Below are positions 38,301 through 41,300 of a stretch of DNA of 64,000 nucleotides, piece after piece. The stretch is from contig CBDBCF010000002.1 in NCBI GenBank assembly GCA_965202985.1, positions 480,001 to 544,000 on the forward strand. The letters are read 5' to 3'. Each line of letters starts with the position of its first letter. Position 1 is the stretch's first letter. The position numbers were made by a program. This stretch comes from Longimicrobiales bacterium. GTDB taxonomy: Bacteria; Gemmatimonadota; Gemmatimonadetes; Longimicrobiales; Gaopeijiaceae.

Positions 38301-41300
38301 CGAAGAAGGTGTGGTGTCTCGCGGTGCGCCCCACCTCTTCCAGGTCGTTGTGCTTGCCTCCGGCCCGCACGCACTTCTGCGACGTGACGGCCCGGCGATA
38401 AGGCAGCCGCTCGCGCCCCAGGAACGCGCCCTTGAACTGCACCATCCCCGCGTTGGTGAAGAGCAGCGTCGGGTCCTGGGACGGCACCAGCGACGCGCTT
38501 GGGCGCACCTCGTGGCCCCTGGCCCGAAAGAACTCGAGGAACCCCCGGCGGATCTCGGCCGCGGTCATCGCGCGCGACCTTGGAGGCCGTTCACCGAGCC
38601 GGCGCCCCGGCGGCCGCGCGATCTGTCGGGCGTGGCGCGGAGGCGTCGGTTCCGGCGGGCGTCGCCCTGTCCTCGCCAGACTCTTGGGCGGGCGCGACCA
38701 TCCCCAGGGCCGCCTGCAAGCGCGCTTCGATCTCCGCCGCGATGTCCAGGTTCTCGGACAGGAAGCTCCGCACGTTCTCCTTCCCCTGCCCCAGGCGCAG
38801 GTCGCCGTAGGAGAACCACGACCCCGACTTGTCCACGATCCCCTTCTCGACGCCCAGATCGATGAGCAGCCCCGTGTGGCTGATCCCCTGGGCGTAGAGG
38901 ATGTCGAACTCCGCCTGCTTGAACGGCGGCGCGCACTTGTTCTTGACGACCTTGACGCGGGTTCGGTTGCCGATGATCTCCTGGCCCTCCTTGATCGCGC
39001 CGATCCGCCGGATGTCCATCCGCAGCGAGGCGTAGAACTTGAGGGCCCGTCCGCCCGACGTGGTCTCGGGGTTGCCGAACATGACGCCGATCTTCTCCCG
39101 GATCTGGTTGGTGAAGATGACGGCGCAGTTGGAGCGGTTCACGGCTCCCGTCAGCTTTCGCAGGGCTTGGCTCATCAGCCGGGCCTGCAGCCCCACGTGC
39201 GAGTCGCCCATCTCCCCTTCGATCTCCGCTCTGGGAACCAGGGCGGCCACCGAGTCCACCACGATCACGTCCACGGCGTTGCTCCGGATCAGCACCTCGG
39301 CGATCTCCAGGGCCTGCTCCCCGGTGTCGGGCTGCGACACCAGCAGGTTGTCCACGTCCACCCCCAACTTGCGGGCGTACTGGATGTCCAAGGCGTGCTC
39401 GGCGTCGATGAACGCCGCGATGCCGCCGTCCTTCTGGGCGTTGGCGATCACGTGAAGGCAGAGCGTGGTCTTCCCCGAGGACTCGGGACCGTAGATCTCG
39501 CTGATCCGGCCCCGGGGCACGCCTCCGATCCCGATCACGGCGTCCAGGTTGACGGCCCCGGTGGAGATGCCGGCGATCTGGAGGTCGGCCCCCGCCGCCC
39601 CCATTCTCATGATGGCGCCCTTCCCGTAGGAGCGCTCGATCTGGGTGACGGCGGTCTTCAGCGCTTTCTCCCGGTGCCGCTGGTCCTTACCGTTGGAGGC
39701 GGAGGCGATGTGCTTTGCGGTCATGGTTCGGCCTTTCCCTGGTGGTGTGTCTGCGTGAGCAAGATACCGAAACCGAAGATAAAGCGAAACCCCCTGCCCT
39801 CGGTTGTCGGCGCGTACCTTCAAGGTACACCCGAAACTGGGCGCTTCCATGCTCAGATCGGCACGACTTTCCGGACAACTGCGCGAGGGCGGGCAACGTG
39901 AGTCGAACGTACGACCTGGTGGCCGTGGGCGGCGGCACCGGCGGGCTGGTGGCAGCTGCCGGGGCGGCGTACCTGGGGCTCGGGCCGGCGATCGTGGAGA
40001 AGACGGCTCTGGGCGGCGACTGCCTGTGGACCGGCTGCGTGCCGTCCAAGGCGCTGATCGCGTCGGGGCGACTGGCCCGGAAGATGGAGGAGGCCGGCGA
40101 ACTCGGCCTGCGCCCGGCCGCTGCTCCCCACGACTTCCGCGCCGTCATGGAGCGAATGCGCGCCGCCCGCGCCGTGGTGGCCCGCCACGACGACCCCGCG
40201 CGGTTCCGCGACATGGGGGTCGCCGTGCACTTTGGAGCCGCCCGCTTCCTGGACGCCTCCACGCTGGAGGTGGACGGCGTGGGAACGGTTCGCTCCAAGC
40301 GGTTCGTGGTGGCCACGGGGGCGTCTCCCCGCGTTCCGCCGATTCCGGGGCTGGAGGAGGCGGGGTACTGGACCTACGAGACCGTGTTCGAACAAAACGA
40401 GCTTCCCCCTTCGATGGTCGTCGTGGGCGGAGGGCCGATCGGCATCGAGTTCGCCCAGGTCCTGGCCCGCCTGGGGTCGCGGATCACCGTGCTGGAGGCG
40501 GCGGAGCGGGTTCTCCTTCAAGAAGACCCGGACGTGTCGGCGTTCGTCGAGCGGCTGCTGGACGCGGAGGGCATCGCCGTGCACACCGGGGCGGCCGTGA
40601 CGACGGTGCACGCCGAACTGGGACGGAAGGTCGTGGAGTGGACCCCGGCGGAATCGACCTTGCAGGAGGGCGAAGCGGCTCGCGCACCGGCCCAGCGGAC
40701 CCGCACCCTGACGGCCGACCAGATCTTCGTCGCCGTGGGCCGAAGTCCCTGCACCGGCGGGTTGGGGCTGGACGCCGCGGGCGTGCGCAAGACGCGCGAA
40801 GGCGCCGTGGCGGTGGACCCGTACCTGCGTACTTCGGCGGCCGGCGTGTGGGCCGCGGGCGACGTGGCTGGCGGCCTTCAGTTCACCCACGCCGCCGAGC
40901 ACATGGCCAAGACGGCGCTCCGGAACGCCGTGCTGCCGGGAAGGACGCGCGTTCGCTACGACGACATTCCCAGGGTAACCTACATGGACCCCGAGGTGGC
41001 GCGGGTCGGCTTGGGAGAAGCCGAGGCGGAAGCCGCCGGGGGGACCACGTACCGCTACGAGCTGGCCGACCTGGATCGGGCGATCGTGGACGGCGCCGGC
41101 GTCGGGTTCGTGAAGGTGTCGGCCGACCGCAAGGGGAAGGTCCTGGGGGCCACCGTCGTCGCCCGAGGCGCCGGCGAGATGATCCTGCCCTTGGTCATGG
41201 CCAGGCAGCACGGCCTGAGCCTTGCGAAGGTCGCGAACACGATCTTCCCCTACCCGACGATGACCGAGGGGGTCAAGCGGGCCGCCGGCGCCTACATGCG

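Follow-up and report, generated by a model that had tools for sequence, protein, structure and literature searches.

In Haemophilus, Vibrio and E. coli, the CRP-S/Sxy(TfoX) regulon is marked by a 22-bp palindrome that is read by CRP together with TfoX, and the streptococcal ComX (sigma-X) box is a short element of the -10 region. ComK boxes are pairs of A/T tracts, and recA of Bacillus subtilis is under both ComK and LexA. To our knowledge, competence regulons with a promoter signature of their own are known only from a few cultured model groups. Note that type IV pilus genes are also used for adhesion and motility, and that Rpn proteins are widespread.

Overexpression of E. coli Rpn (YhgA-like) proteins led to more RecA-independent recombination of incoming DNA (PMC5350276); we know of no described link of E. 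coli Rpn to competence, a word that does not occur in that paper.

The window analysed here is a stretch of 64,000 nucleotides of a Longimicrobiales genome, along which the positions below are counted. The survey's finding for this genome was a promoter/operator motif of about 45 nt, placed at 39839-39885 upstream of recA, shared by DNA-uptake and recombination genes and by most Rpn genes, and interpreted as the mark of a natural-competence regulon.

Results

Structure of the recA locus

The following features were assigned at the recA locus.

39833..39871, minus strand: 39-nt conserved block of the shared promoter, upstream of recA (43.9 bits with the position weight matrix (PWM); contig C2 position 519871)
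39844..39849, minus strand: -35-position hexamer TGGAAG, placed by its spacing to the -10-like hexamer
39822..39827, minus strand: -10-like hexamer TACCTT (nAnnnT), 16 nt after the -35-position hexamer
39813..39817, minus strand: predicted transcription start of the distal recA promoter
39758..39789, minus strand: second conserved element, TTCG(G) direct repeats, between the motif and recA
38591..39724, minus strand: recA coding sequence, 377 aa (Pfam RecA 457.9 bits, RecA_C 82.5 bits)
39898..41361, plus strand: pyridine nucleotide-disulphide oxidoreductase gene with GTG start (Pfam Pyr_redox_2 191.3 bits, Pyr_redox_dim 89.1 bits)

The block (window 39871..39833, minus strand) reads GAAAGTCGTGCCGATCTGAGCATGGAAGCGCCCAGTTTC. 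Counted from the predicted start, it would span about -56 to -18; the start itself was placed by its usual distance from a -10 hexamer, 6-7 nt, and by analogy with the putatively leaderless genes described below. The ATG of recA (39724) follows 108 nt past the block. The GTG of the divergent oxidoreductase gene is 26 nt from the block on the other side; the motif points away from this gene, which we read as lying outside the regulon. The position given in the survey's finding holds the 5' two thirds of the block, with 14 unconserved bases added, and leaves out the T-rich end and the -10-like hexamer (39827..39822).

Distribution of the motif in the genome

When both strands of the 3.86-Mb genome were scanned with the PWM, the 39-nt block was found at 39 distinct sites with scores of 29.8-64.6 bits, all of them oriented toward a gene downstream. 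Forty positions reached 8 bits or more, the additional one being a duplicate with a 1-nt offset (15.6 bits), and no position in the genome scored between 8 and 15.6 bits; the backwards-read genome, used as the control, gave a maximum of 2.8 bits and 0 positions at 8 bits or more. The distribution of scores is thus bimodal and the motif is real, as had been claimed, with 39 sites here versus the 40 counted before. The best look-alike outside these sites (7.9 bits, upstream of secA) was taken as chance, and an initial two-block regular expression (3125 matches) was dropped as far too loose.

The matrix had been feared to reflect mainly the paralogy of the Rpn genes. However, a PWM made from only the 15 sites that are not linked to Rpn genes gave 39 positions at 10 bits or more, namely those 15 and the 24 Rpn-linked sites, of which the lowest scored 22.5 bits. 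Mean pairwise identity among the 15 non-Rpn sites reached 0.70 within the block, and was 0.30 both for the 40 nt on its upstream side and for the sequence further downstream; the motif is thus more than paralogy. The exact AAACG-N3-CGTTT dyad, which the survey's finding named as part of the motif, is present at just 5 of the 39 sites, and the block is asymmetric; the dyad is thus not a defining feature and the operator reading is not supported.

Promoter-like geometry

In 37 of the 39 sites, the -35-position hexamer is followed by a hexamer of the form nAnnnT across a spacer of 16-18 nt, whereas 6.7% of 20000 random genome positions had one at such spacing. The -35-position hexamer is TCCAAA at 23 sites and TGGAAG at 10 sites (of 39 each). 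Since pilB, recQ, L013 and L039 have their ATG 18-19 nt past the block, these four genes would be leaderless; the geometry at pilB is preserved in G001, G002 and G003, and also in a degenerate copy in G006, which belongs to another genus. From this fixed register and the leaderless starts, the element reads as a sigma-70-type promoter with a non-canonical -35 hexamer, in keeping with the promoter half of the earlier promoter/operator claim.

Other promoter classes were also compared. A sigma-54 promoter requires an invariant GG at -24 and, at a distance of 10 nt, a GC at -12; this reading was rejected, as 23 of the 39 sites have CC (TCCAAA) where GG is needed. ECF-sigma promoters have a GGAAC-like -35 element, a spacer of 16-17 nt and a CGT-like -10 element; here, an AA(A/G)C core is present and CATCGT occurs at 15 sites, but with an AAC-to-CGT distance of about 19 nt, and other sites show CTT or CAT. 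The sigma-32-type (group 3) promoter consists of a TTGAAA-like -35 and a CCCCATnT-like -10 element, to which TGGAAA/TGGAAG and (C/G)CCCATC(G/T)T are similar at many sites; no heat-shock gene was found directly behind any motif site.

Genes downstream of the motif

Upstream positions of Rpn/Transposase_31 genes or their remnants account for 24 of the 39 sites. The other 15 precede recA, ssb, recQ, comM, pilB, the comEA-pilT-pilC row, a TPR-pilin-PilM-PilO-secretin row, an asparaginase II-obg-dprA row, a C39-peptidase cluster and, in six cases, genes of unknown product. The earlier gene list was borne out with Pfam and NCBIfam models for recA, ssb, recQ, comM, pilB, comEA/PilT-type ATPase/PilC, TPR/pilin/PilM/PilO/secretin, the asparaginase II/Obg/DprA row and the C39 peptidase. 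Twenty of the downstream ORFs match Pfam PF04754 (Transposase_31) at 35-89 bits (cut-off, 21 bits), and a six-frame search of the genome gave 27 matches to this family, 21 of which have a site (19 of 22 in the earlier count, a slight difference). One of these 21 has an in-frame TAG.

DNA-uptake or recombination genes are found in eight of the 15 non-Rpn units. The same element stands before the uptake genes (pilB, comEA-pilT-pilC and the pilin-PilM-PilO-secretin row) and before the processing genes (dprA, recA, ssb and comM). Seven of nine core competence units (pilB, comEA/pilTC, pilin-pilMOQ, comM, dprA, recA, ssb, comEC and comF) have a site, which corresponds to a rough hypergeometric P of about 5e-15 under the assumption of 2200 units; note that this category was drawn up after the data had been seen and that the upstream region of comF was left out of the checks. 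The genome-wide scan gave no site for comEC, as had been cautioned. In the dprA row, dprA is the third gene, and asparaginase II and obg ahead of it are odd members of a competence regulon.

Conservation in related genomes

The block was found before recA in all three congeners (G001, G002 and G003) and before comM in all three. Among the 60 loci examined for the other orthologues, it was found before pilB (3/3), ssb (2/3), comEA (2/3), unk03 (3/3) and the C39 gene (1/3). In genus g35, it precedes recA, comEA and ssb in G225, the C39 gene in G242 and G329, and the asparaginase row in G261; in genus g6, it precedes a type IV pilin gene at 4 of the 4 loci scanned. One site in G225 is located ahead of a DNA methylase gene. 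This conservation before orthologues across genera strengthens the earlier grouping of uptake and recombination genes, most Rpn genes and the C39 cluster under one motif.

A 23-nt core of the motif (at most one mismatch) was found in 25 of the 70 other genomes of the family (f1) and in 0 of the 330 genomes from 11 other families of the phylum sample; the backwards control of this search gave 2 matches. The carriers that turned up are metagenome-assembled genomes only, and a search of sequencing runs gave no matching RNA data set. With model R1, no motif was detected before recA, comM, comEA or ssb of G012, G008 or G006; the one exception, the degenerate copy before pilB of G006, scored 5 bits (E = 0.6) and was accepted on geometry alone. 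In G008 (100% complete, of the same family, motif-less), no comM, comEA or pilB was found with the queries from the present genome (G000). The range of the motif is part of one Longimicrobiales-type family and not the phylum as a whole. No description of a competence regulon in Gemmatimonadota was found in the literature, and the claim to be the first in the phylum rests solely on that.

Search for the factor and relation to lexA

The genome (G000, 92% complete) gave 0 matches for TfoX_N and 0 for ComK. With an asymmetric block and no TfoX_N match in this genome, the CRP-S/TfoX system was rejected, and so was the ComK system, as there are also no paired A-tract/T-tract boxes in the motif alignment. 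For Sigma70_r2, there were 22 matches, 20 of them above the Pfam cut-off; 11 of these 20 proteins, and one that was classified separately, were assigned as three sigma-A-like (283-297 aa) and nine ECF-type factors. For the sigma-A-like protein encoded beside ssb, each of the 21 family genomes searched, with or without the motif, has a counterpart of 73-90% identity. Since two or three sigma-A-like paralogues occur in all 21 (11 motif-bearing and 10 motif-less), none of them was singled out. One sigma-A-like paralogue belongs to the comM row, where it lies 4.2 kb downstream and nothing resembling a terminator intervenes; we record this as a lead only.

The whole-genome scan gave no site of 8 bits or more before either of the two lexA genes, in agreement with the earlier remark on lexA. 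The TTCGG-repeat element is also present upstream of recA in G012 and G008, both of which are without the 45-nt motif, and five TTCGG repeats lie upstream of one lexA gene (C1, about 2500740-2500800). The element at 39758..39789 is a candidate for a family-wide recA operator or promoter and a lead to the SOS box. A scan with YTTCGS-N5-YTTCGS as a candidate SOS box gave 39 matches, mostly intragenic, and was too unspecific to define a regulon.

Discussion

A probable competence-type regulon

We consider it probable that a specialised promoter of the sigma-70 family, of which the element forms the -35 region and the sequence upstream of it, heads a competence-type regulon. In such a promoter, an A-rich tract would be followed by about 24-28 bp of conserved, asymmetric sequence that covers the -35 position (consensus, G(G/T)CC(G/C)ATCCAGC(C/T)AT(CC/GG/GT)AA(A/G)CGCCC). 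About 17 nt of spacer would separate this from a weak -10 hexamer (nAnnnT), and transcription would start about 7 nt beyond. Because the -35 element is unlike TTGACA and conservation extends well past a hexamer, a dedicated factor would be needed, either an alternative sigma factor or an asymmetric class-II-type activator. The promoter would head about 39 transcription units, the non-Rpn part of which corresponds to the classical competence set (type IV pilus/pseudopilus, comEA, comM, dprA, recA, ssb and recQ); most of the expanded Rpn family of PD-(D/E)XK nucleases, the C39-peptidase/ABC cluster and a few uncharacterised envelope proteins would have been recruited besides. The competence interpretation is thus supported in part, as the motif heads uptake and recombination genes, most Rpn genes and the C39 cluster, but comEC is without a site. 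The promoter nature, the co-induction of these units and a purpose in DNA uptake and recombination are what we infer from sequence. Although it is defined by sequence alone, the regulon is unusually clean, with bimodal scores and conservation before orthologues across genera.

Alternative explanations

It is unlikely, in our view, that a promoter of the same kind serves a defence, 'foreign DNA' or stress programme instead of transformation. Such a programme would comprise the Rpn nucleases, a candidate PLD-like nuclease, the C39/ABC peptide cluster and the envelope proteins, and the pili, RecA, SSB and RecQ would be used for surface functions and for the repair of self-inflicted damage. The 24 Rpn-linked sites among the 39 fit this purpose as well as they fit transformation, since the one cellular role known to us as shown experimentally for Rpn proteins is a toxin-antitoxin and anti-phage one (PMC10327210) and overexpressed Rpn is toxic and induces SOS (PMC5350276); the site before the DNA methylase gene of G225 and the lack of one at comEC point in the same direction. 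Against it, comEA, comM and dprA are all under the motif, which in other species is likewise found before comEA and comM. We know of no role of comEA, comM and dprA outside DNA uptake and processing. An SOS-type regulon, in which recA, ssb, recQ and the nucleases would respond to DNA damage through a LexA-like or other damage-responsive repressor, had been raised earlier and appears improbable. These three named genes are typical damage-inducible genes, and the block could contain a repressor site between -35 and -10; however, neither lexA gene carries a site, the element is asymmetric with the exact dyad at 5 of 39 sites, an operator would not usually keep a constant distance to the -10 hexamer, as this element does in 37 of 39 cases, and genes for pili, ComEA and ComM do not belong to the SOS response. 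The second, TTCGG element of recA, which is common to lexA and to recA of motif-less genera, weakens the SOS alternative further.

We regard it as very improbable that the motif was simply carried along as the 5' region when Rpn cassettes were duplicated, or marks the end of a mobile unit, with the non-Rpn copies captured or arisen by chance and not regulated in common. Within subfamilies, the Rpn-linked sites do share sequence well past the motif, and the majority of sites are Rpn-linked, but the 15 non-Rpn sites share the block alone (flank identity, 0.30) and the non-Rpn-only PWM finds every site. This explanation is largely refuted by the conservation of the block before orthologous recA, comM, pilB, ssb and comEA, both in species with ComM proteins only 75-76% identical to that of G000 and in other genera. 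A transcribed structured RNA (5' leader, riboswitch or small RNA) would suit an element of about 45-55 nt that is strand-specific and upstream of genes; with no Rfam match at E values up to 1 for the 10 loci searched, 0 pairs predicted by RNAalifold on the 39 copies, and four genes that begin 18-19 nt past the block, too close for a leader to fit, we give it hardly any credence.

Significance

Returning to the competence-type regulon, the data suggest that an uncultured marine bacterial group turns on DNA uptake and Rpn nucleases together. A stronger version, in which a lineage-specific promoter with its dedicated sigma factor or activator drives competence, and at least 20 Rpn nucleases are co-induced and act on DNA during transformation, is put forward tentatively, and we would lean against it at present. 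If it is true, the Rpn nucleases might cut the resident chromosome and so admit poorly homologous DNA, or might protect the cell from phage and plasmid DNA while it is open to uptake, and the Rpn family would gain a physiological context. Most useful is the connection drawn here from Rpn nucleases to DNA uptake, as co-regulation with comEA, comM, dprA and recA gives a testable proposal for when cells make Rpn. In a lineage that cannot be cultivated so far, the motif also offers a ready set of candidate competence genes, among them those of six unknown proteins, and the 24-28-bp block could be used as bait for the regulator.

Comparison with known systems

As in the CRP-S regulon, type IV pilus genes, comEA, comM, dprA and ssb share a special element in front of them, and the site overlaps or adjoins the -35 region with a dedicated factor needed, which is predicted here. 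Unlike CRP-S sites, the present block lacks symmetry, and its sequence is unrelated to theirs; G000 gave no TfoX_N match, and recA, recQ and about 20 Rpn genes are members whereas comEC is not. The late regulon of ComX and the staphylococcal SigH regulon are similar in that a promoter of the alternative-sigma type would unite the uptake genes with recA, ssb and dprA, and the C39-peptidase/ABC cluster is reminiscent of the peptide/bacteriocin or fratricide genes of the ComX regulon; the conserved part here, however, is the -35 and upstream region, with a weak -10, unlike the ComX box. As in B. subtilis, recA apparently has two elements, a distal one of competence type and a proximal one shared with lexA. 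Finally, the downstream genes resemble E. coli Rpn in matching Transposase_31 above the Pfam cut-off, and differ in that there are 27 six-frame matches here, 21 of which share the promoter of the DNA-uptake genes.

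The recA motif and the genome-wide scan

The motif, a conserved 39-nt block, is located in the 173-nt intergenic gap between recA and a divergent oxidoreductase gene, at the following window positions.

39724 (ATG), minus strand: recA (Pfam RecA, 457.9 bits)
39789..39758, minus strand: TTCG(G) direct repeats, a second recA upstream element between the motif and the ATG
39871..39833, minus strand (the recA strand): motif site (position weight matrix (PWM) score, 43.9 bits)
39898 (GTG start), divergent from recA: pyridine nucleotide-disulphide oxidoreductase gene (Pfam)

The PWM on the ungapped 39-nt block was iterated over the genome under study (G000; contigs C1 and C2; 3,860,224 bases; GC 0.685), and 39 distinct sites were obtained with scores of 29.8-64.6 bits. 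Apart from one duplicate offset by 1 nt (15.6 bits), nothing else in G000 reached 8 bits, and the maximum in the control, in which G000 was read backwards, was 2.8 bits. The nine places named in the survey's finding, taken in the recA-strand sense, do have one oriented sequence in common; the coordinates given there lay about 14 nt too far upstream of the conserved part and ended short of the block end. The top sub-threshold look-alike (7.9 bits; C1 883437-883475, minus strand, L282), 89 nt before secA, was taken as chance.

Paralogy of the Rpn genes (Transposase_31, YhgA-like PD-(D/E)XK nucleases) had been raised as a possible source of part of the similarity. This worry was not borne out, because a PWM built on the 15 non-Rpn sites, with the Rpn-linked ones left out, yielded 39 positions of at least 10 bits, namely those 15 and all 24 Rpn-linked sites (the lowest of the latter at 22.5 bits), and because identity among the non-Rpn sites was 0.70 within the block and only 0.30 in the flanks on both sides.

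Anatomy of the probable promoter

In alignment A1, near-contiguous conservation over about 40 nt was followed by a weaker element. Block positions 23-28 were taken as the -35 position, where the hexamer was TCCAAA at 23 and TGGAAG at 10 of the 39 sites. An nAnnnT hexamer was found 16-18 nt downstream at 37/39 sites, versus 6.7% of random genome positions, the spacer being mostly 17 nt (29 sites), less often 16 nt (7 sites) and once 18 nt; its commonest hexamer variants were CATCGT (15 times) and CATCTT (8 times). No base pair was predicted by RNAalifold on the 39 copies, and the Rfam search, made on 10 loci, gave no match. The AAACG-N3-CGTTT dyad that the survey had described is present in exact form at 5/39 sites, and the whole block is asymmetric. 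In four cases (pilB, recQ, L013 and L039, the last an Rpn fragment) the ATG is 18-19 nt past the block and 6-7 nt past the nAnnnT hexamer, which would make the genes leaderless. At pilB the three congeners (G001-G003) have an identical arrangement, and it recurs with a degenerate motif copy in another genus (G006).

Directly before rplM, a canonical-looking TTGACA-18-TATCGT promoter (L085 6617-6646, minus strand) suggests, as one case, that ordinary promoters of the organism may have the usual -35. From this anatomy as a whole, we read the block as what would be a recognition module for a dedicated factor, set on an otherwise ordinary -10; the factor would be either an alternative sigma or an asymmetric class-II-type activator. 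The block is very probably a promoter element that is both functional and conserved.

G000 encodes three sigma-A-like proteins, 283-297 aa long (C2 799830-800678, C1 1342691-1343581 and C1 1320449-1321306; L085, L264, L267), and no long RpoD was noted beside them. The one convergent with ssb, 73-90% identical over 21 family genomes, is probably the primary sigma; another belongs to the comM row and is not separated from comM by any terminator-like site. Of the words sampled from window positions 37000-41000, 0.51-0.96 were present in each of seven sequencing runs; X5 and X6 are of organism A, and the other five (X1-X4, X7) carry the label sponge metagenome. The runs listed for this region included none of RNA.

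Genes downstream of the sites

At each site 3 kb was fetched, and the forward frames were scanned with Pfam. Transposase_31 ORFs followed 20/39 sites and Rpn remnants four further ones; of the 27 six-frame Transposase_31 matches in G000, 21 had a site before them. Non-Rpn units headed by the motif numbered 15.

Table. Rpn remnants and non-Rpn units after the motif in G000 (in brackets, congeners with the motif before the first gene, where recorded)
L023: Rpn remnant, DUF4351
L039: Rpn remnant, 67-aa fragment (Transposase_31, 21.1 bits); its six-frame match has an in-frame TAG
L005: Rpn remnant, weak Rpn C-terminal match
L008: Rpn remnant, assigned from the 5' region alone, which resembles the Rpn15/16/21 group
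recA (3/3)
ssb (2/3)
recQ
comM, aminotransferase, NtrC-type regulator, sigma-A-like gene (3/3)
pilB (3/3)
comEA, PilT-type ATPase, PilC, AAA_22 protein (2/3)
TPR protein, pilin (N_methyl), PilM, PilO, secretin
asparaginase II, Obg, DprA, radical-SAM protein
C39 peptidase, ABC ATPase (1/3)
Two units (L003/L081, L004/L082): paralogous DUF5128/NHL-like six-bladed beta-propeller lipoproteins
Three units (L028, C1 ~2279284; L036, C1 ~2217108; L037, C2 ~32241): membrane-anchored proteins with many tandem coiled-coil repeats; weak CCDC90-like/apolipoprotein-type matches
L013/L083: predicted leaderless 197-aa protein

Protein-atlas clusters gave a lead, and only a lead, to the L013 protein as a candidate PLD-like (Nuc/NgoFVII-type) nuclease. 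GC content varies less with codon position in the C39-peptidase cluster (L032/L089, C1 ~1690000-1692400) than around it, which might point to a recent acquisition; the pairing of motif and C39 gene is nonetheless kept in the congener G003 and in G242 and G329 of genus g35.

Conservation among relatives

A set of 41 relatives was searched with R1, a covariance model built on A1 from sequence alone. Each of the three congeners had matches at E <=0.001 (25, 14 and 27); outside the genus only two genomes had a match, in each case a single weak one. Within the genus 60 loci were surveyed, the best match being of Rpn type at 45, and the motif is kept before the genes so marked in the table despite a divergence that leaves ComM 75-76% identical to that of G000. 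It is also kept in 3/3 congeners for unk03, an unknown regulon gene, whose orthologue lies about 1.1-1.3 kb past the motif there (L101, L119, L143) versus 75 nt in G000; an extra gene seems to have been inserted between them.

A 23-nt core, with one mismatch allowed, was searched for in 401 genomes of the phylum. It was found in 25/70 other genomes of the same family (genus g35, 15/24; genus g6, 7/11; three single genomes) and in 0/330 genomes of eleven other families, and the backwards control gave two matches. In g35, G225 had 20 R1 matches, including sites before recA, comEA, ssb, ten Transposase_31 genes and one DNA methylase gene, and the motif precedes the C39 gene in G242 and G329 and the asparaginase II row in G261; in g6 it stands ahead of a type IV pilin gene at 4/4 loci scanned. 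An exact scan of all 185,579 species genomes gave 66 stretches, of which 57 belong to assemblies whose titles name Longimicrobiales, Gemmatimonadetes or Gemmatimonadota; the other 9 are scattered singly elsewhere, about as expected by chance. In the complete genome of G008, of the same family and without the motif, the G000 queries retrieved no comM, comEA or pilB.

Outside the genus (loci L196 of G225, L168, L172 and L176) the core was thus seen before this DNA methylase gene (N6_N4_Mtase) and also before small toxin-antitoxin-type genes (HicB, RelE), and the regulon may include further defence-type genes there.

Competence, SOS or defence

Neither of the two lexA genes of G000 has a motif site, as the survey had observed. 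The TTCG(G) repeats (L073, L074) also occur before recA in two motif-less genera and, as five TTCGG repeats, before one of the lexA genes (C1 ~2500740-2500800). They look like the lineage's candidate SOS box, but a scan with a simple pattern lacked the specificity to prove this. Because of this second element, recA seems to be under two controls. No role outside transformation is known for comEA, comM and dprA.

The motif that the survey observed is confirmed. The survey had read it as the promoter of a competence regulon, and a competence-type DNA-uptake and recombination regulon is still the best available interpretation and, in our judgement, somewhat favoured by the data. The motif precedes 7/9 core competence units, a list drawn up after the data were seen, with a rough hypergeometric P of ~5e-15 for a category thus chosen post hoc. 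Against it count the absence of a site at comEC in G000 (also remarked in the survey), the lack of TfoX and ComK matches in G000, the Rpn genes behind the majority of sites, and the sigma-A-like paralogues, which do not discriminate between motif-bearing and motif-less genomes. Overexpression of Rpn was shown by Kingston et al. (PMC5350276) to raise RecA-independent recombination, with toxicity and SOS induction, and Rpn proteins are described as toxin-antitoxin and anti-phage proteins in a later paper (PMC10327210). Since either role is compatible with competence or with a defence programme, the same promoter serving the latter purpose is kept as an alternative, which we consider improbable.

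Within the literature covered, no link was found between Gemmatimonadota or Longimicrobiales and a competence regulon, or between Rpn and competence (one match, PMC9862903, had no bearing on it). What is new is this motif, this lineage and the presence of Rpn genes among the members. Competence regulons marked by a promoter signature of their own are a well-known kind of system, and two controls on recA, as seem to exist here, are known from Bacillus subtilis.
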